Positions 1,475 to 17,878 of a stretch of 20,000 bases of DNA are shown piece by piece; position 1 is the stretch's first letter; every line of letters starts with the position of its first letter. Source of the DNA: an uncultured virus (IMG/VR IMGVR_UViG_3300008267_009160) (lineage: Duplodnaviria; Heunggongvirae; Uroviricota; Caudoviricetes); IMG/VR virus record IMGVR_UViG_3300008267_009160, positions 54,186 to 74,185 of that record. One strand, given 5' to 3'. Position numbers and translations under genes: made by a program. The notes under the pieces are model-generated. The model was not told where the DNA came from. It did no database searches and was given only the letters and a program-made list of their open reading frames with translations.

Positions 1475-1897
1475 TTAGAGGCTAATTATCTTATGTATCT
1501 TAGTGCTTAGGAGGCGGATATCATCTCCCTGTGTTAGTAGTACTGTATTTTTATAATCCGCCCATGAAATTCTATAGCTTGTATCTAGAATCCCTTCGTT
1601 TAACTGCCTTATTAGAATGTTTAAGGCATTAATAGTATACAGTGTGTTTGATTCTTTCTTTCTGTGAAGAAGGATCGTATTGTTGAGAATATAAGGAGTT
1701 GTATTTTCTGTATCAATATTATATGTGCAGAGCAAATCCGTACAATCCTTAGACTCTAATACAAATATTTTATTGTACAGAATCTTATAGTGGGATTTAA
1801 TCTGATCGAGAGTAGTGTCTAAACTCTCCTTTGATGTGAATGTACAAAACAGTCTATTCATATAATCAATACCGCTGTAGTCGAAATTATCTATCAT
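1475..1897 (-). CDS. Hypothetical phage protein, translationally coupled to the polymerase gene
   Basis: 140-aa ORF (LFCTF, LLCTYNID, ILLHRKKESNTLYTINALN). ATGA start/stop overlap with the polymerase at 1894-1897. Alternative start at 1861 (MNRLFCTF). Confidence 0.75.
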   Translation of the reverse strand: MIDNFDYSGIDYMNRLFCTFTSKESLDTTLDQIKSHYKILYNKIFVLESKDCTDLLCTYNIDTENTTPYILNNTILLHRKKESNTLYTINALNILIRQLNEGILDTSYRISWADYKNTVLLTQGDDIRLLSTKIHKIISL

Positions 1898-3225
1898 AAA
1901 TAGTTGGTTTTCATTAAAGAATCGTAATCCTTACCGTACTTTGCTTTTACCGGATATTTACTTTCTCGCAAGAGGCTAACAATCTCTAGCAGGAGTTCTT
2001 TTCCGTCCTCTACGTTAAAATCTAATAAGAAAGAGTCGTATACTACTAGGCTTATAAAACTCTTCTTCCCTTCTAATATAGCTTGAAGTTTTGTCAGTAA
2101 TTCTACGTTTGTTTTAGTTTCTAAATTTTGTATAAAGTAATTAAATAGTTTGAGTAAGTATATGTCTTCGGATACTTGTAAGGTTCGTCCAGTCGGTAAT
2201 TGAACTCCTTTCCCGTACTGGTATGTATTCCAAAGATCATCAAGGTAGGTGCTTAGAGCTTTGTAGAAAGGAATCTCTCTATACTCTTCTTTAATGCCTC
2301 CGTATATGTTTTGGAAGGTTATTTGCTTAGCTTCCTTATATTCTTCTTCTGTGATAGTATCTCTGTTAAAGTACTGTTTTGCAAAATATGTATGAATCGA
2401 TTGATCTTCTGGTAATTCGAAGTTAATCAAATTAGCAATAAGTCTTACGTGGTATGCATCAAAATCAAACTCGACAAAGTAATGGTTCTGAGGTATGAAG
2501 CATTTTCTAGAGTGGTTTTCTTTATTTAGGGCTAGAAAGTTAATACCGTTGAATGCATTTGTAGGTCTCGCAGTTACATTGTACAGGTTATAGTTTGTAT
2601 ATATTATCTGATCTTCGTAAGAATCTGTTATACTGTGCGGAGTAAAAAATTCTCCAAAGCATTGAGTATCTATTTTAAGTCCTGCTTCTTCTACCTTTTT
2701 ATAAACTTTTTCGTATTGAGAATAAAATTCTAGATCTAAACGAAAAGTCTTAATACAGGTCTCAACTTTAATATAAAGCTCTTCCCAGTATTCGTAGAGT
2801 TTCGATATCGGTATAACTCTGTTTATATCTTTGTAAACACCGGTGTATCGTTGATAGTAGATGTTTATAAGGGGTGAATCTCCCCTATTCTCCATAGGTT
2901 TCTCCCCTCTTTCTAAAAAACAATAATTGAGGTCTATTAAAGAAAGATCTAAGTAATATGAATGGTATTTACTGTTTAAACAGTATATCTTACTAGCTTT
3001 CGATAGTACCTTAACTACTTCGAGTATATTAAGTGAAAAGCCTTCCGAATGATCTAGAACTACAATATATCCTTTGTTTTCCGATACGGGACGTATGTAA
3101 AGTAGAGAAGGTTTTGCTAGACGGGGATGCTGATTATCGTTATTAGAGATTAGATTTATGAAGCATGAATCTAGCTTCTCTCCTAACTTTTCTAACTGTT
3201 CTTGAGTTTCTACTATGTAGTGCAT
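1894..3225 (-). CDS. Short, divergent family A DNA polymerase-like protein
   Basis: Motif A-like FVEFDFDAYHVRLIA, SIH, motif B-like EAKQITFQNIYGG, NYFIQ, motif C-like LVVYDSFLLD, and TARPTN at the TGRLSS position. No recognisable ExoI/II/III acidic residues in the N-terminal region. Confidence 0.8.
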   Translation of the reverse strand: MHYIVETQEQLEKLGEKLDSCFINLISNNDNQHPRLAKPSLLYIRPVSENKGYIVVLDHSEGFSLNILEVVKVLSKASKIYCLNSKYHSYYLDLSLIDLNYCFLERGEKPMENRGDSPLINIYYQRYTGVYKDINRVIPISKLYEYWEELYIKVETCIKTFRLDLEFYSQYEKVYKKVEEAGLKIDTQCFGEFFTPHSITDSYEDQIIYTNYNLYNVTARPTNAFNGINFLALNKENHSRKCFIPQNHYFVEFDFDAYHVRLIANLINFELPEDQSIHTYFAKQYFNRDTITEEEYKEAKQITFQNIYGGIKEEYREIPFYKALSTYLDDLWNTYQYGKGVQLPTGRTLQVSEDIYLLKLFNYFIQNLETKTNVELLTKLQAILEGKKSFISLVVYDSFLLDFNVEDGKELLLEIVSLLRESKYPVKAKYGKDYDSLMKTNYL

Positions 3226-10562: not shown

Positions 10563-13500
10563 TTATCTTATACGTGAGTTAGAATTTAAAACATTGCCGT
10601 AACTTGTAACGGTTGCTTTAGAAGTTGCATAGGCTAGTTTATCTGCATCCACTGTAAGTTGTTTATCTCTAATTGCAGTTAAAATAGCTGTATGCTCTTT
10701 TAGAACTTTAACCATTTCAACAATAGTATCGCGAGTATCTTTTCCTAAGAATACTTCTCCTTGGTCTACTTTTGCTACACCTGTAGTAGTTACTACGCCT
10801 CCGGTTGCTAATTTAGGTTCCTGAAGAGGAGTAGCTTCCTTGGATGGACCGGTTTTTCCTGCAGCTTTTAATTCATCTCCGTACATACCCAGTACAGCAT
10901 CACCGATAGGTTTTGCTCCTACAAAGTCTGCAACCAATCCTCCTAGCCACCTACCAGCAACATCTCCTGCCATTGCACCTAAGATAGTACCTACGCCTGG
11001 GATAGGTATGAGAGATCCTAAAGCGCCTCCTCCGATTGAGCCTAACACACCTCCTAATCCTTGCATCACTCTCGCACCGACTGCTTGTGATAGTTCAGGC
11101 CCTTTTTTATCACCTGCTATCATCTCCTTAATGTCGTTATTTGCAAATACACCTTCTATTAAGGTGCTAACAATAGGTATCTTAACTAATTTTTTTAAGA
11201 AACCTCCTATATTTGTTTTTAACCATCCTCCTATAGCCCCTTTAGGGTTAGCTACAGCAGAAGCTGTTGATTTTATACTGCTCCATATTCTACTAAAGAA
11301 TCCACCTCCGCCGGTTTTAGCAACATTAGAGGCAGCGGCAGCTGTTGTCTGAGTTGCGGGTGCAGCTGCTTTAGCTTGTTTTAGAGCTTCTGCAGATGTC
11401 ATACCGGGGTTAGCTGCTTTTATTTGAGCGGCTGTTTTAACATTCGCTGATACCGGTTTAGCACCGGGGGTGGTTGCTGCTGCAGGTGCACTAGCTGTAG
11501 CGCCTGCGCTTGCTCCGCCACCTGCGGCTCCACTCATAGCATCTGCTACACCTCCGTATCCTAAAGCTCCTAACAGTGGTGCAGCCTTTCCACCTATCTT
11601 TCCTAAAAACTTACCAGTACCGGCAAGGAATCTACCGAACTTGCCCATTTTAGCAAGCTTTCTTCCCATCTTAAACTTACTACCGGGTTTAGAGCCGCCT
11701 AGCATATCTGCTACACCTCCTTCACCTTCACCTCCTCCTGCTCCTGCACCACCAGCACCCAGATTAGTTACTTCACTAAAAGTTGGATTACTGCGAGATG
11801 AACCTCTGGTAAAGTATTTTGCAATACCTGATAATCCTTTTAACCCTATTATGATTGCTCCTATTGAAGCAAACTTCTTAAGCACGTCTCCCAGGATTGG
11901 AATATCTCCAATCTTACCTATAAACTGTCCTACACCTTTTACTGCTAATACTATACCTCTAGTTATATCTGATACAAATTTAAAACCGTCTGCTAAAAGT
12001 TCTACAAATTGTCCCATCGGCCCTTCTACTATGGAGGCTATAACATCTTTCATTTTTTCCATAGCTTCGGCAAACCTGGTCTGAGTGTCAACTTGCATTT
12101 TTGATACCTCAAAGCTCTTACCTTGGGCGATACCTTGTTCTATTTGATCCGCTAATTGACCTTTTCCTTCTGCTCTTAGTTTCTTTATCTCATCTTTTTG
12201 TGCAGCACTTAACTTATTTAACTGAGCTTGTTTCTGTAACGAATTGGCTAACTCATCAGCAGACATGCCCATTGACTCAGCAATTGCCTGTTGTTGAATC
12301 CTATTTAATTTTTGGAAGTTGTTAATACCGCCGACTTGCTTTAACATCTCTTCAGCCGCTTCTGCTGTTTTTCCTTCAAGAGCTAAACTTCTAGCTCTAC
12401 TTAACTCTAAATCACGGCCTGTTAAAACTTCTGCTTCCATTTCTGCTGCAATAGAACTCTCAAAGTCTAACAGCTTATCTGTCATATTCTTTGTTTGTTC
12501 TAGAGTTAGTCCTAGCTTTTGAGCCTGTACTACAGCTTTTGCAATTAGAGCAGGATCGTTTTTATAGAATGCAGCTAATTGCCCTTCTGTCTTAAGTACT
12601 TCTGCAAGTACTTTTTTATTGCTAAATAATCCTTTGTTTTGTTTTCCAACATTTTTTACAAGATCTTCCTGAGTAGTGTTGTACTGCATTGCGTACATCG
12701 AAAGCTTAGAAGCTTCTTCCCCGCTAAGTCCTAAGTTTCTTGTAAGTAGTATTTGTCCTTCTGTTAACTTCTCTCCAAAGATGGCTGATGTACCAAAAGC
12801 TTCGTTAAGCTGTTGTTGAGCGGCAAGGGTATTCTTTTTAGTCATATACTCCTTACCGCTATGTACTGCCATTTCTTCAGCATAGTGGTAGAGGTCTTTT
12901 GCTGCATCAGCAGATAAACCATACTGTTTACCGATATCGGCTACCTCTTTGTTGAACTCCATACCTAGATGGACTAGCTTAGTTACAAGACCGACAGCTA
13001 GTCCCATAAGTACCAGAGGATCTTTAAGGGCTGAACCAATACCTTTAAACACACCTTTAAGCCCTGCCATTGCAGTGCTCCATATGTTACCATGCTCAGC
13101 AGCATGTTCCATACTCTCTTCTATATCCTCAAAATATTTTGTATCGATACCAAACTTACCTAGAGCACCAGTTATACCGTGTATTAACTTTCCGGTTAAT
13201 CCTAACTTCTTTTGAATTTCTTCTTCATGCTTTAAACGAGTCTGGCTAAGCTTTACCAGGTCATTTAAGTAGTTACCTTCTTCTTGCTTTAATTTTCCGT
13301 TCTCATCTAGAATTCCGTTAATCTCTATAAGCTGTGCTTTCTCCTGTTCTGTAAGTGCTCTAGATTTTGCTAGTTCTTGTAATTCTTTTCTCGTCGAACT
13401 TAAAACCGATGTCTGTATTTTTATTTTTTCTTGAAGGGATAATATATCTTTTCTGTTAAGTTTAGATATACCTTCTTGGTCGTATTTAAACTTATCGGCT

Positions 13501-13817
13501 ATTCCTCCTAACGCTCTAAAAGATTTAGTTATCTCTTTACTCGCAGTGTCAACTCCGGTTATATCTTTAACTACATTCTTAAAGGTATCGCTTACTTCTG
13601 AAAATCCTCTTTTCATCCTATCTACTCTATCTTCTAAACCGGCTAGCGTTTGGTCTAGAGCAGTAGTATCTCGTTTAAGAGCGTCTAAAGTTACGCTTTT
13701 AAACTCTATATTAAGTTCACGAGCTAACTCTTTTAACCTTAAAATCTTAGCTTCTATTTGAGCTAATGATTCAGGGCTGGGAGTTTGATCGCCTGTAGGA
13801 TTTGTTGCATCTACCAT
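10563..13817 (-). CDS. Tail tape measure protein
   Basis: 1084 aa, long helical/coiled-coil Ala/Lys/Glu-rich sequence with Gly-rich hydrophobic stretches and a C-terminal LATGGVV...GEV motif. Canonical position after the tube and chaperone genes. Confidence 0.85.
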   Translation of the reverse strand: MVDATNPTGDQTPSPESLAQIEAKILRLKELARELNIEFKSVTLDALKRDTTALDQTLAGLEDRVDRMKRGFSEVSDTFKNVVKDITGVDTASKEITKSFRALGGIADKFKYDQEGISKLNRKDILSLQEKIKIQTSVLSSTRKELQELAKSRALTEQEKAQLIEINGILDENGKLKQEEGNYLNDLVKLSQTRLKHEEEIQKKLGLTGKLIHGITGALGKFGIDTKYFEDIEESMEHAAEHGNIWSTAMAGLKGVFKGIGSALKDPLVLMGLAVGLVTKLVHLGMEFNKEVADIGKQYGLSADAAKDLYHYAEEMAVHSGKEYMTKKNTLAAQQQLNEAFGTSAIFGEKLTEGQILLTRNLGLSGEEASKLSMYAMQYNTTQEDLVKNVGKQNKGLFSNKKVLAEVLKTEGQLAAFYKNDPALIAKAVVQAQKLGLTLEQTKNMTDKLLDFESSIAAEMEAEVLTGRDLELSRARSLALEGKTAEAAEEMLKQVGGINNFQKLNRIQQQAIAESMGMSADELANSLQKQAQLNKLSAAQKDEIKKLRAEGKGQLADQIEQGIAQGKSFEVSKMQVDTQTRFAEAMEKMKDVIASIVEGPMGQFVELLADGFKFVSDITRGIVLAVKGVGQFIGKIGDIPILGDVLKKFASIGAIIIGLKGLSGIAKYFTRGSSRSNPTFSEVTNLGAGGAGAGGGEGEGGVADMLGGSKPGSKFKMGRKLAKMGKFGRFLAGTGKFLGKIGGKAAPLLGALGYGGVADAMSGAAGGGASAGATASAPAAATTPGAKPVSANVKTAAQIKAANPGMTSAEALKQAKAAAPATQTTAAAASNVAKTGGGGFFSRIWSSIKSTASAVANPKGAIGGWLKTNIGGFLKKLVKIPIVSTLIEGVFANNDIKEMIAGDKKGPELSQAVGARVMQGLGGVLGSIGGGALGSLIPIPGVGTILGAMAGDVAGRWLGGLVADFVGAKPIGDAVLGMYGDELKAAGKTGPSKEATPLQEPKLATGGVVTTTGVAKVDQGEVFLGKDTRDTIVEMVKVLKEHTAILTAIRDKQLTVDADKLAYATSKATVTSYGNVLNSNSRIR

Positions 13818-13845: not shown

Positions 13846-13872
13846 AGTACCTACTTTTTTGGAGCAGGTACT
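13846..13872 (-). terminator. RNA hairpin over the stop of the chaperone extension ORF (possible weak terminator or processing site)
   Basis: Minus strand AGUACCUGCU-CCAAAAA-AGUAGGUACU: 10-bp stem with one G-U. Lacks a clean U-tract. Confidence 0.4.
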
Positions 13873-14114
13873 TTATAGGTAGGTTGTTTCTGAGCTATGT
13901 TTGGTTTGTAAATCTCTCTCTTATTATTAGTTGCGTCGTTTAGATCTTCTTCTCCTTTTTGCTTCTCGTACCAGTCTTTCATTTCATTAAAAGTGTATTT
14001 GCGAAGCCAAGTAGGCATTTCATATATATCTAACCAACTGTAACCTCCTTGTCCGTGAAATACTATTTCATGTATTTCTTTGAAAAGGTAGAGTCTATGC
14101 TCAGGACTTAGGCC
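13851..14114 (-). CDS. Unannotated +1-frame extension of the tail assembly chaperone (gpT / T4 gp51-like)
   Basis: 87 open codons: GLSPEHRLYLFKEIHEIVFHGQGGYSWLDIYEMPTWLRKYTFNEMKDWYEKQKGEEDLNDATNNKREIYKPNIAQKQPTYKVPAPKK*. It fills the gap between the chaperone and tape measure genes. The first ATG is at 14018 (a 55-aa product). Confidence 0.8.
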   Translation of the reverse strand, partial: GLSPEHRLYLFKEIHEIVFHGQGGYSWLDIYEMPTWLRKYTFNEMKDWYEKQKGEEDLNDATNNKREIYKPNIAQKQPTYKVPAPKK

Positions 14115-14856
14115 AAAAAAATTCTGTTCCGATTGGAATCTCTACGCCCTCCTCAACGTGTGTATCAGATTCGTAGTCAAACGTAAGAAGTACTTCTGGT
14201 TGAATTTCGGTAATATGTTTTCTTAGAGCTCTTGAATCGGGTGCTAACATAACATCGACAAAGCCTCTAATTGCTTTTGGATCTCTGTCTCCATTTATCG
14301 ATGTGATAATCTTTTTGAACCTGGTAGTTACTTCGCTAGATCCGTTAGGATTGACTTTTTTCATACCTTGAAGTTCTCTCTCAATATCTTTCTCATCTTT
14401 ATGAGTTAGTAGTTTGAAAGTGACAATATTGCCGGTAGTAGGTAGTTTAAATTCAAACTCATTCACACCGGGAGTCTTAACTAAACTTCTATCGAGTTTC
14501 TTTTCTTTTAACTTTGTTAAGTCGACGGTGACTTTTTCTGAAGTTCCTGTAATAGGATTGTAGTAGTTAAAACTGTAATCTTTACCGTATCCTAGAATTC
14601 TTGCAGCAATCAGCAAAGCATTCTTATCTGTTATTAGTAGATCGTCAAAATTAATCTTAGTGACGATTAGAGATTGTAGTAGTTTATCTAGAACCGTGTT
14701 ATTATTAATTAGATTAGCATTAGTAAGGATATCTTCCTCTTTTGCTGTCATATACTTCATTTCCAGTTTACCGCTAGATAAAGGGTTATCTTGGGGATAT
14801 AAGAGTCCTTCGGACGGTAGTTCAACTGTTTCGGTCGGTAACTTAAATTCGCTCAT
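14101..14856 (-). CDS. Tail/baseplate hub assembly chaperone (T4 gp26-like, lambda gpG-equivalent position)
   Basis: VELPSEGLLYP, MKYMTAKEEDIL, LLI.DKNALLIAARILGYG.DY, F.LP.T...VTFKLLT..DE and C-terminal FFWP. Lies between the tube and tape measure genes. Confidence 0.8.
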   Translation of the reverse strand: MSEFKLPTETVELPSEGLLYPQDNPLSSGKLEMKYMTAKEEDILTNANLINNNTVLDKLLQSLIVTKINFDDLLITDKNALLIAARILGYGKDYSFNYYNPITGTSEKVTVDLTKLKEKKLDRSLVKTPGVNEFEFKLPTTGNIVTFKLLTHKDEKDIERELQGMKKVNPNGSSEVTTRFKKIITSINGDRDPKAIRGFVDVMLAPDSRALRKHITEIQPEVLLTFDYESDTHVEEGVEIPIGTEFFWPKS

Positions 14857-14913: not shown

Positions 14914-15477
14914 CTAGAAAACAGTCTTCAAGCTTCTAATAATTTTTTTATCCCATTTCTTAAGAACATTCTTGTAGAAGTAAGCTAAAGCATACGGTCC
15001 AGAATGTCCTAATTCTAAAGCAAAGCTCTTTATTTCAGCAGAGGTTAGTTCGATAAGAAGGATGTACTCGTCAAAAGTTGGATCGCCTTCTATATTATTT
15101 TTCTTATAATAGTCTCCTAAAGCTATTTCAGCAGTTAAGTCAAAGTATTTACCATTAGAAGAATTCCAAGCATGATCGAGAGGTACGTACCTGGAAGCTA
15201 TTCCTTCGCAGTATTTAATGCCTGATCCGCCTGAGTACGCTGTGTAGAAAGAGTTGTCGTAGCACTGCTTAGTCTTGACTTTTAATATTTTGCTTTTTAA
15301 CAAATCGTCTACGTCTTTAGCTACAGGTAGGGTTTTATAAGAAACAACTTTTATAGGTTTAGCTACTTCAGCTTTCCATTTAGCAAACTTTAATTGATCA
15401 TTTTCAGCATCAAGCATTTGAGAAAGCATTGTTGCTTCTCCGTCAAGATATCGTTTTAATTGGCTTTCTAGTAACAT
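14914..15477 (-). CDS. Hypothetical protein with a putative Cys-His-Asp triad (transglutaminase/papain-like fold)
   Basis: KQC72YDNS...YCEG...DH102AW...YFD113LT. The C/HAW/D order is typical of transglutaminase-like superfamily members. Ends in a double TAG stop. Confidence 0.55.
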   Translation of the reverse strand: MLLESQLKRYLDGEATMLSQMLDAENDQLKFAKWKAEVAKPIKVVSYKTLPVAKDVDDLLKSKILKVKTKQCYDNSFYTAYSGGSGIKYCEGIASRYVPLDHAWNSSNGKYFDLTAEIALGDYYKKNNIEGDPTFDEYILLIELTSAEIKSFALELGHSGPYALAYFYKNVLKKWDKKIIRSLKTVF

Positions 15478-15551: not shown

Positions 15552-16037
15552 TTAGAAGTTAAGTTCGCAGTAATCCATAGCGATTGTCATTTCGATCGTA
15601 ATGTACTGATCGTTAGACCAATCGTATTCACCGAAGTTAGCTGATTTAACGTATGCGCCTCTGATCACCCATTCTCCTACGATATCACCTACAGGGCCTA
15701 AGATGTTTAGAGTGACATTCTTTTTATAGAAGTCAGAATAACCATCTCTACCTGTGATTGATTCGTGAGATAGACGGATCCATTCCATTACAGTTTGGGC
15801 TCCAGAAGGGGTGATAGGGTCGTAAAGCGATAGTGCCATATCCTGCCATTCAGCTTTGCCCTTAAGTTTACGGTATACGTTGATGTGATCGAGCTTGATA
15901 TCAGTAAACTGTACTTGAGGTGAAGCAGCTTTCTTGATGAGGTATGTAGGGATACCATCGATGTACATTATGAAGCGGTTCTGAACCTTGGGTTCGAAGG
16001 CCGTATACATCAACTCATTTGGATCTATTAGTGGCAT
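15552..16037 (-). CDS. Tail tube protein (T4 gp19-like)
   Basis: 161 aa directly after the sheath gene. EPK..NRF, KGKAEWQDM.L.LYD, VMEW, YKK..TL..L.P.G..V.EW...GA...S..FGE.DW and I.MT..DY fit the gp19-like tube pattern. Confidence 0.9.
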   Translation of the reverse strand: MPLIDPNELMYTAFEPKVQNRFIMYIDGIPTYLIKKAASPQVQFTDIKLDHINVYRKLKGKAEWQDMALSLYDPITPSGAQTVMEWIRLSHESITGRDGYSDFYKKNVTLNILGPVGDIVGEWVIRGAYVKSANFGEYDWSNDQYITIEMTIAMDYCELNF

Positions 16038-16084: not shown

Positions 16085-17878
16085 TTATTGACCAAATGTT
16101 GCTCCAGTTGGTAGAATGTTGAAGTCAAGTATAATGAATTCAGCAGTTCTAGTTGGCTGTAAGTAGATAGCACCTACTAATTGGTTTCTATCGATTACAT
16201 CTGGAGTGTTGTTTGTTTCATCCATTACAATTCTGTAAGAATATAGACCCTGTCTTTGTTGTACTGAATCTAAGTAAGGAGTCATTTGATTGACGAACTT
16301 AGTTCTTGTAGCAACTGTGTTCTGCTCGAATAAGAAGTTTTCAGCAATTTGACCAATTTGTCTCTTAAGAGCAATTAATAGTCTTCTTACGTTTACTCTA
16401 TCAAGAGCAGAAGGCTTAGTTTGTAAGGTCTTCTGACCATATACTACTGTACCTTGTCCAGGGAATATTGCAATTGGGTTTACTTTACCGTTGTAAAGGT
16501 TGTCTCTGTTAGACTTTGTTAATCTGTATTCAGGACCGATTACTGTTGGCAGTCCACCGCGGTTTAGACCTGCTGGTGCAAACCATTCTGCAGCAATCTT
16601 GTCGTTATATGCATACACACCGGGGATGATAGTTGAAGCAGGAACCCAACGCATTTTACCTGTCTCGTTAGATCTTACTTGAACCCAAGGCCAGTATGTA
16701 GCGGCATAGCTAGTATCGGCTACAGCTGCATTATTTACAGCGTTAGAAACACTTTGGTTTTTAGCTGTTGTGTCTAGTACTGCAATTGCATCACCTCTAC
16801 CTTCGACGATTGTTATTACATCTGCTAGGGTAGTTTCTGCATTTTGAATGGCTAGACCTGGAGCATAAATTACTTCGTAGTCGTACCAGTCTTTATTTTT
16901 AAGAAGACTGAAAGCTATATCGTAGTTACCTGGAACGAGTCCTTGTATGTTTTCAGTAGCGTTTGTTGAACCTTCAGGAACACCTGTTATGTTTTCAAAC
17001 AGCTTTAACGCTTTACCGCTAGTCTTTCCGCCGTATAGATCACCAGCTGAACCACTGAAAGATCCATTGTATGAACCTGAACCTATTTTAGGTATAGAGC
17101 CGGTTGCAGCTGAGTTTGCAGTTCCGTCATTGTTTAAGTATCCGGGCTGTGCATTAACGTAAGATACTCTCACGAAACGGCTCTTGTTAGCGTAAGATCC
17201 TGTAGAGAGTAACTGCCAATCGCCGTTCTCATCTTGAACAGGATACCAAGACATATTACCGATTTGGTATTCTATATAATTAGGTGTATTTGGATCTAAG
17301 CTTAAGTTAGACCAAGTCTCTAATACTGTTTTTTGTTTCTGGTAGTCATCACCTCTTCTGATCACAAGAGTGAAAAGTCCGTTCTCTTTATCTGAGTATG
17401 ATACTTCCCATCTGATATTATTCAATGAACCAGAAGGTAAATACCCCTCTGCTAGGCTTGCTGTTGCACCTTGGTAGTTGCTTTGGTCAACACCTAAAGC
17501 GAGTGTTTCTAATATAAAAGAAACAACTCCAGAGCTTGTAGCTGGTACAGAAGCAGTTGCAGGTAGGTAACCTCCGTTAGGTATAGTTGCAATTGATCCT
17601 GAAACAACTCTTGTTACAATCATAGTCTCACCTCCTTGTTGGAAGTAGTTATAAACTGCTAAAGAGGTTAGATATTCTTCGGTAGAGCTACCGGTTACAA
17701 ATATAGATCCAAACTTGCTTGTAAAATCAGAATAAGAAGTTACTACAGTAGGGTAGTTAACCGGCCCTTTAACGGTAGGACCTACTAACGCGGCACCTGC
17801 TACTACAGGTCCTTGTGCTATTTGGGATAGGTCGTTTTCGTTTAGAAATACGCCGGGTGAGATTATTGCTTCTGCCAT
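16085..17878 (-). CDS. Contractile tail sheath protein (T4 gp18-like)
   Basis: N-terminal SPGVF..E.D, YAATYWPW, WFAPAGLNRG, RD.LY...VNPI..FPG.G.VVYGQKTL, SALDRVNVRRLL, FE.N...TR and IYLQPTRTAEFI.LDF are hallmark sheath motifs. Confidence 0.95.
   Translation of the reverse strand: MAEAIISPGVFLNENDLSQIAQGPVVAGAALVGPTVKGPVNYPTVVTSYSDFTSKFGSIFVTGSSTEEYLTSLAVYNYFQQGGETMIVTRVVSGSIATIPNGGYLPATASVPATSSGVVSFILETLALGVDQSNYQGATASLAEGYLPSGSLNNIRWEVSYSDKENGLFTLVIRRGDDYQKQKTVLETWSNLSLDPNTPNYIEYQIGNMSWYPVQDENGDWQLLSTGSYANKSRFVRVSYVNAQPGYLNNDGTANSAATGSIPKIGSGSYNGSFSGSAGDLYGGKTSGKALKLFENITGVPEGSTNATENIQGLVPGNYDIAFSLLKNKDWYDYEVIYAPGLAIQNAETTLADVITIVEGRGDAIAVLDTTAKNQSVSNAVNNAAVADTSYAATYWPWVQVRSNETGKMRWVPASTIIPGVYAYNDKIAAEWFAPAGLNRGGLPTVIGPEYRLTKSNRDNLYNGKVNPIAIFPGQGTVVYGQKTLQTKPSALDRVNVRRLLIALKRQIGQIAENFLFEQNTVATRTKFVNQMTPYLDSVQQRQGLYSYRIVMDETNNTPDVIDRNQLVGAIYLQPTRTAEFIILDFNILPTGATFGQ

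Follow-up and report, generated by a model that had tools for sequence, protein, structure and literature searches.

One gene of a freshwater phage very probably yields a short and a long tail chaperone through a +1 slip on a U-run, and relatives of the phage appear to reach the same protein pair by other routes

Tail assembly chaperones of long-tailed phages often come as a short and a long form. In a stretch of 20,000 nucleotides from an uncultured freshwater member of the Caudoviricetes (IMG/VR record IMGVR_UViG_3300008267_009160, positions 54,186 to 74,185; the whole stretch is called the window), one gene very probably yields both forms. The long form would arise when ribosomes slip one base forward (+1) on a run of U at the gene's end, and thus enter a frame that lacks a start codon of its own. 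Relatives appear, from sequence comparison, to obtain the same pair by a backward slip, by a gene split or by a T4-like duplication. The elements concerned are the following.

14101..14856, minus strand: TAC-N chaperone gene, product of standard decoding (PF12322, phrog_150, T4 gp26 alignment)
14115..14121, minus strand: putative shift site UUU UUU U, formed by the two terminal Phe codons and the next base (seven T)
13851..14114, minus strand: TAC-C, 87 codons in the +1 frame, with a predicted three-helix domain and then a low-complexity tail
14142..14144, minus strand: TAG shutting the +1 frame upstream, the 5′ bound of the entry window
14127..14138, minus strand: candidate 5′ mini-hairpin of 4 bp with a 4-nt loop, in the I-P-I-G codons (covariation), ending ~5 nt before the first Phe codon

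The open reading frame (ORF) of 251 amino acids (aa) at 14856–14101 ends GAA TTT TTT TGG CCT AAG TCC TGA, and its seven T lie at 14121–14115, exactly as described in the initial annotation, which proposed that a 251-aa and a ~334-aa chaperone are made by a +1 slip. From stop to stop (14141–13851), the +1 frame comprises seven codons, the two Phe codons and 87 further codons, 96 in all, before TAG 13853–13851. Its first ATG, GTG or TTG lies 32 codons past the T-run. The proposed frame limits (a TAG seven codons before the run, 87 open codons after it to TAG 13851) and the absence of a standard start over 32 codons are confirmed, and the entry window, estimated at ~40 nt, measures 38 nt (14141–14104). 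One four-base step read at the T-run gives a fused product of 334 aa. In the 74-kb genome record, an in-frame TTT TTT T occurs within the last 10 codons in one of the 74 ORFs of at least 100 aa, and therefore the position of the site at the gene end is not due to chance. The looser motif, TTT followed by a pyrimidine (Y), occurs there in seven of the same 74 ORFs.

The evidence that carries the +1 reading is the behaviour of this site across relatives. These were the best 80 of 598, 80 of 330 and 80 of 576 matches, at least 120 pattern matches and smaller sets, and they form a sample rather than a census. Among 426 loci gathered, 397 have both domains by hidden Markov model, the other 29 being shortened or too distant, and dereplication (<90% identity over 180 nt) gives 257 lineages. 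TAC-C lies in the +1 register in 251 of them and in another register in six. All 251 +1 lineages have a frame-0 UUU followed by U or C at the terminal Phe-Phe (FF), spelled TTT TTT T in 230, TTT CTT T in 14, TTC TTT in five and TTT CTA in two. Since the variants TTT-CTT, TTT-CTA and TTC-TTT also fit, a tRNA-Phe that shifts by +1 from UUU onto UUY would account for all 251 lineages. Thus, as judged from these spellings, the real signal is a frame-0 UUU-Y at either Phe codon and not the U7 run. The proposal of a 251-aa and a ~334-aa product is thereby supported at the level of the family.

Codon choice around the site is strongly biased. The first Phe codon (codon 0) is TTT in 246 of 250 core lineages, and the second is never TTC (0/250, against a background of 16%), in agreement with the predicted depletion of TTC. 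The codon after the site is UUU, CUU, CUA or UGG. Directly ahead of the run stands C in 201 of 250 lineages and T in 13, and an Asn at this place is encoded by AAC in 122 cases and by AAT in five (background AAC 30%). U is avoided at this position, which removes the competing −1 heptamer U_UUU_UUU (T_TTT_TTT). Immediately downstream, the frame-0 Pro is CCT in 244 and the Asp is GAC in 216 of the 250 lineages; because both choices spell Leu-Thr in the +1 frame, selection on this frame begins directly after the run. In +1 codons 9–32, upstream of the Met of MPTWLR, codon-position entropy is 0.71/0.48/1.27, with variation mostly at third positions, and codons 33–50 likewise vary mostly at third positions. 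Amino-acid conservation upstream of MPTWLR, on which the initial annotation had staked its proposal, equals that after it. No conserved upstream start exists, as had also been expected: 102 of 245 loci lack any ATG, GTG or TTG before the conserved block, and the remaining starts are scattered. In 25 of 250 lineages, a +1 stop sits one codon before the site, which pins entry to the shift site; 22 of these 25 lack a canonical start before the conserved block. The 40 codons past the site are open in the +1 frame in 247 of 247 lineages, in frame 0 in none and in the −1 frame in three, a count that describes the set and is no independent test, since the loci were chosen for their TAC-C match.

The closest cultured relatives are Flavobacterium phage vB_FspM_immuto (55% identity) and Microcystis phage Mel-JY01 (48%). 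Their sites read TTT CTT TGG and TTT TTT TGG, respectively, and both share the gene order and the +1 layout of the window. Their records list a hub gene and a short hypothetical ORF, with the frameshift unannotated.

Natural exceptions tie the register to the motif. A second Phe codon TTC is found in 22 matches, 20 of which read T_TTT_TTC (AAT TTT TTC), with TAC-C in the −1 frame and a 3′ stem-loop; the other two read TTC TTC, and their TAC-C has its own ATG. The mean z of the stem-loop is −2.4 in 14 distinct −1 loci; in 60 sampled +1 loci, the corresponding value is −0.15. In the −1 clade (L430–L451 and L414), the stem-loop begins 7–8 nt after the start of the first Phe codon. A rapidly built LG+G4 tree covers 63 rows; branch support comes from SH-aLRT alone, and the root is flagged for long branches. 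In this tree, eight −1 rows form one branch (SH-aLRT 100) among the +1 lineages, and own-ATG loci occur in three places. An earlier quick-search tree left out three short −1 loci, and the tree label noTACC is carried by L442, which has an own-ATG TAC-C gene. A pattern for loci without UUU-Y matched 33 times; 24 of these matches are homologues, among them several identical ones, and a +1 TAC-C frame lacking a start occurs in none of the 24. In 16, TAC-C is a gene that begins at an ATG of its own, four have a T4-like layout and four, in incomplete records, have no visible TAC-C. TAC-C was likewise not found in records G007 and G008, which are 34% and 10% complete and therefore uninformative.

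In five distinct own-ATG loci, TAC-N and TAC-C are separated by a GIY-YIG endonuclease gene. These genes are free-standing (L455:1008-1631, L456:282-887, L460:940-1620, L466:1021-1617 and L469:1015-1626); in these loci, TAC-N ends TTC TTC and TAC-C has its own ATG and an N-terminal extension. The TAC-N/TAC-C junction may be an insertion hotspot. The T4-like layout, a second, in-frame TAC-N–TAC-C gene, is seen in three of its four loci. In this layout (L483:829-1734, L484:796-1731 and L452/L485), a TAC-N gene without slippery site is succeeded by a diverged, full TAC-N–TAC-C fusion in one frame. The L483 fusion matches the predicted 334-aa product with E 7e-40, gap-free through FFGL; in L483, a 283-aa DUF7487 ORF stands ahead of the fusion gene. 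By its gene layout, the L483–L485 state corresponds, within the window's own family, to the pairing of gene 26 with gene 51 in T4. The suggestion that the terminal FFWP of the short chaperone is kept partly because it encodes the shift site stands only in part. UUU-Y is indeed fixed, but FF persists in signal-less genes (TTC TTC) and in in-frame fusions, and therefore it is not kept for the shift site alone.

More distant phages extend this picture. SP-15, LIS04, HSE3, GXN1, BRock, L322 and L325 have a +1 ORF behind a frame-0 UUU-Y, picked out by eye except in HSE3, and five of them (HSE3, GXN1, BRock, L322 and L325) read UUU_CGY. A UUU_CGY motif of the influenza PA-X type with a trailing +1 ORF is seen in the set L180 (Streptomyces phage BRock), L085, L087, L322 and L325. 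In T4-like cyanophages, Sinorhizobium phage phiM12 and jumbo phages, a gp51-like domain comes after the homologous FF codons, in a frame other than theirs: 10 of 10 records have T_TTT_TTY at this place with the domain in −1, which mirrors the window's +1 site. BCD7 (a G-run) and LR756511 (own ATG) deviate from T_TTT_TTY. The ten records (L169–L172 and L174–L179) belong to cultured phages and leave the frameshift unannotated, several with an annotated ATG. It is tempting to propose that the terminal Phe-Phe of the gp26 family is one ancient recoding site with a direction set by its flanks, V_UUU_YUU_U giving +1, with aid in some lineages from a refolding 5′ mini-hairpin in place of a hungry codon or Shine-Dalgarno site, and U_UUU_UUC with a 3′ stem-loop giving −1. 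Within one family, this site would have flipped from +1 to −1, been repeatedly abandoned for a separate TAC-C (often with GIY-YIG between) or been replaced by a duplicated in-frame fusion. This proposal we hold to be evenly balanced between right and wrong.

The 251-aa protein is, by profile and structure comparison, a tail assembly (baseplate hub) chaperone of the T4 gp26 family, named TAC-N. It matches PF12322, the T4 gp26 family, with E 2e-8 and 34.5 bits (curated cut-off 24.5), and phrog_150 with E 3e-15. Its alignment with T4 gp26 covers 189 columns (E 1.9e-4), with EFF terminal in both. The structural model has a predicted local distance difference test score (pLDDT) of 90, and its top Foldseek matches in a viral library are T4-like hub assembly proteins. 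Against 48,161 PDB chains, all matches are middling, below Z 8: 3fgx (Z 6.7), 3klu (Z 6.4) and the HK97 tail assembly chaperone 2ob9 (Z 5.4). The first two we take to be chaperones. The closest among named PDB entries, 2ob9, aligns over 81 residues of the N-terminal domain only, with a root-mean-square deviation of 4.4.

The start-less +1 frame appears to encode a conserved domain, TAC-C, with a weak likeness to gp51. AlphaFold2 predicts three helices (pLDDT 82.5 for the first 62 aa). The hhalign comparison with five gp51 proteins of cyanophages and phiM12 is weak (E 3e-4, probability 38%), and T4 gp51 is reached only through cyanophage gp51 (E 3e-4, then 0.007). Matches to phrog_634 occur in seven of 56 TAC-C members (best E 0.0016) and to phrog_32580 in 28 of 56 (best E 0.007). 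When the window's hidden ORF was scanned by itself against Pfam and PHROG, no meaningful match emerged, and Foldseek found no match of the TAC-C model to viral structures at E ≤ 0.001. A complex prediction for TAC-C with the tail tube protein scored 0.00 and gave no answer; it is counted neither for nor against binding.

Several known systems invite comparison. Frameshifts in G/GT tail chaperones are widespread and include −1, −2 and +1 (Atkins et al. 2016, PMC5009743). As with lambda gpG/gpGT, a short and a frameshift-extended chaperone would come from one gene between the tube and tape measure genes, and the window has two ORFs there that overlap in different frames, with no conserved start and with a conserved slippery site. 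Unlike in lambda, where the shift is −1 on X_XXY_YYZ, the shift in the window would be +1 on UUU-Y, in a 251-aa gp26-family protein of a contractile tail, and a 3′ stimulator was not found. The window's A_TTT_TTT with its ORF in +1 departs from the canonical −1 pattern, which is seen only in the nested −1 clade. A +1 tail chaperone shift is proposed for haloarchaeal HSTV-2 (PMC5009743, PMC8211752), and for HF1-group haloviruses at TTT-CGC, on a rare-codon argument and without experiment (PMC7230728). The haloarchaeal myoviruses resemble the window in having two chaperone ORFs in a +1 register ahead of the tape measure gene, and a frame-0 UUU-C site has been proposed for them. They differ in having UUU_CGC and a rare codon, whereas the window comes from a phage of bacteria, whose site is UUU_YUU_U and whose A-site codon is not rare; the comparison concerns layout, not homology of the chaperones.

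T4 offers another comparison. Its gp26 (208 aa) and gp51 (249 aa) are hub assembly chaperones (Leiman et al. 2010, PMC3004832). TAC-N shares with T4 the PF12322 domain and a gp26 alignment that runs to the terminal EFF, and relatives L483–L485 share the two-gene layout with an in-frame TAC-NC. Unlike T4, with its two genes, the window has one gene and a putative frameshift. Vladimirov et al. (2022) reportedly proposed that T4 encodes its short and long chaperones separately, as gp26 and gp51. PMC12846349 credits the same work with poly-T −1 signals in the TAC-N genes of T4-like phages. In influenza A PA-X, the +1 shift occurs at UCC_UUU_CGU, with proof by mass spectrometry of +1 on UUU_C (Firth et al. 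2012, PMC3498833). The likeness lies in the P-site tRNA-Phe moving from UUU to UUY, on a frame-0 UUU followed by a pyrimidine. PA-X differs by its eukaryotic ribosome, its unrelated gene and its A-site CGU; the A-site codons of the window clade are UUU, CUU or UGG, and none is CGN. A literature search, which left most subscription papers outside, turned up no report of a +1 shift in genes of the gp26 family.

A fused chaperone product, by whatever route, is highly probable; the frameshift is very probably programmed, and a ribosomal +1 slip of tRNA-Phe on the frame-0 UUU is its likely cause. The layout, its conservation and the covariation of frame with motif are observed; from them we infer the slip and its direction. 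Most ribosomes would stop at TGA 14101 and release the 251-aa TAC-N, the equivalent of lambda G. A minority would slip one base forward with tRNA-Phe on the frame-0 UUU, re-pair on UUU and continue through GLSPEHR to TAG 13851, giving the 334-aa TAC-NC, the equivalent of lambda GT and T4 gp51. Slippage at the first or the second Phe would produce an identical junction, EFF then GL. By analogy with lambda G/GT, the TAC-N/TAC-NC pair presumably coats the tape measure protein and aids the start of hub and tube assembly, in a ratio that would be set by the slip rate.

The 5′ mini-hairpin is a tentative stimulator of the +1 slip and would assist it, at most, in some lineages. Upstream hairpins are able to stimulate +1 shifting on 70S ribosomes (PMC6321510). 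A G/C at codon −3 accompanies C at codon −6 in a set of 95 lineages (odds ratio 18, a figure inflated because the lineages are related); G+C content at third codon positions is equal, and none of 13 control codons is positively associated. The hairpin pairs by Watson–Crick rules in 72 of 139 cases, against 44 ± 5 after shuffling, and the mean difference in minimum free energy is about −1.2 kcal/mol. A conserved Shine-Dalgarno stimulator was considered and rejected: Gly at codon −3 occurs in 143 of 250 lineages only, and the genome hardly uses such sites.

Some findings weigh against the +1 reading and the assignments attached to it. Neither a hungry codon nor a universal stimulator was found at the site (A-site codons UUU, CUU or UGG), and no 3′ structure was found in the 60 sampled +1 loci. 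The 5′ hairpin is possible in only the 143 of 250 lineages with Gly at codon −3, the other 107 lacking this Gly. Some ATG, GTG or TTG lies in the open +1 stretch in 143 of 245 loci, at scattered positions. The distant L323 has a +1 ORF behind TTA TTT AAT, without UUU-Y, and L324, L326 and L327 were noted alongside it. TAC-C has no direct match to T4 gp51 (E 0.5). The locus counts are not independent events, because the loci are best scan matches with common ancestry. Finally, the window's pure U7, taken alone, would accommodate a −2 slip or polymerase slippage as well, and the counter-argument comes from relatives.

The −2 slip would make the same fusion with one extra Phe, the peptidyl-tRNA-Phe on the second UUU moving back two bases. 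On U7, a single P-site tRNA could re-pair perfectly in this way; phage Mu gpGT uses −2, and in other hosts a −2 shift can take place at sites nominally of the +1 type (PMC3498833, PMC5009743). Such a slip is nevertheless unlikely, as −2 re-pairing is impossible on TTC TTT T/C (5 of 251 lineages, plus GXN1 and L325) and poor on TTT CTA (two lineages), and a tandem −2 slip requires U's upstream, whereas C precedes the run in 201 of 250 lineages. The in-frame fusions carry two Phe and not three, a weak point, because a one-T deletion gives two Phe whichever the slip direction. Stand-alone TAC-C genes that read FFG were considered as evidence for +1 over −2 and rejected, since the +1 frame reads FFG regardless.

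That TAC-C is instead a separate small gene, translated from a near-cognate start, by re-initiation after the TAC-N stop or from the Met of MPTWLR, is quite unlikely. Own-ATG TAC-C genes do occur in the family, and therefore TAC-C can function on its own; CTG stands as second +1 codon in 227 of 250 lineages, and starts in this phage are hard to recognize, because a Shine-Dalgarno-like site precedes only two of 62 ORFs in the whole record. However, the window has CTA rather than CTG, and CTG results from the overlapping Pro-Asp codons. Codons 9–32, upstream of the Met, are under amino-acid selection, and Immuto has Phe at the position of that Met. Conservation starts at the T-run, upstream of the TAC-N stop. 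A separate gene would also leave unexplained why UUU-Y is fixed, and why its loss coincides exactly with the appearance of a genuine ATG or of a fused copy.

RNA polymerase slippage, offered in the initial annotation as a second route, would drop one U (or add two) on T7, so that part of the mRNAs would already be in frame. T-runs of 7–9 in 230 of 250 lineages suit it. As a family mechanism it is very unlikely, because in the other 20 lineages, the cultured Immuto included, the longest T-run is just 3–4, with the layout still kept. The motif is, moreover, locked to reading frame 0, which polymerase does not see, and runs of at least seven T are common in the window's genome (37 T-runs, 9 A-runs). 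Efficient polymerase slippage usually needs longer runs. Reads of the one RNA run, X20, do not extend over the site. A single gene broken by sequencing or assembly error, or a pseudogene, can be practically dismissed: homopolymer runs are prone to indel errors and fused forms of the protein exist in nature, but contigs from three other DNA runs (three studies) span the T-run with zero gaps, the near-identical IMG/VR contigs L001 and L002 have the same seven T, and the same break recurs in cultured phages and in 251 lineages at ~40–65% protein identity to the window.

The surroundings are those of a contractile tail module, in the order sheath, tube, an unrelated 187-aa ORF, TAC-N, TAC-C and tape measure.

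10563..13817, minus strand: tape measure protein, 1084 aa, directly 3′ of TAC-C (phrog_167 E 2.9e-4)
15552..16037, minus strand: tail tube protein (gp19-like), upstream (PF06841 E 7e-5; phrog_4542 E 6e-25)
16085..17878, minus strand: tail sheath of a contractile tail, upstream (PF04984, PF17482; phrog_23 E 2e-76)

Counterparts of the tape measure gene bear this label in the annotations of Immuto, SP-15, HSE3 and LIS04. The 187-aa ORF (14914–15477, minus strand), between the tube and chaperone genes, matches no known family, and cultured relatives have no gene at its position; a terminator-like 14-bp hairpin (15530–15498) lies upstream of it. A 10-bp stem-loop with a weak U tail (13846–13872, minus strand) includes the TAC-C stop, just before the tape measure gene. 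TAC-C ends APKK in many relatives, which hints at a conserved hairpin at the TAC-C stop. Elsewhere, a 443-aa protein (1894–3225, minus strand), short for a family A enzyme, partially matches DNA polymerase family A (PF00476, 30 bits, below the cut-off). No tRNA genes were found in the window, and its promoter-like sites do not exceed chance level. An A at −3 precedes 38 of the 62 ORFs of the whole record (G000). Scarce Shine-Dalgarno sites together with A at −3, presumably the Bacteroidota pattern, would fit a Bacteroidota host.

Documented bacterial +1 shifts, as in prfB and in the tail genes of Listeria phages and SPP1, mostly rest on a stop or slow codon. The site in the window has neither, yet it is kept in hundreds of aquatic phage lineages. 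If the +1 reading is true, it would define a widespread bacterial class of +1 shifts without a stop or rare codon at the site. Current annotations, a hub gene followed by a truncated hypothetical ORF, miss the long product. For the short/long pair, the family appears to hold four different answers at a single homologous position, namely +1, −1, split genes and a duplicated fusion; this series, with the cultured member Immuto of Flavobacterium, is what the comparison adds. It can be used to ask what sets the direction of frameshifting and how T4, the classic exception, came to two genes. If true, the duplicated-fusion state would show T4 genes 26 and 51 arising from a frameshifted gene.

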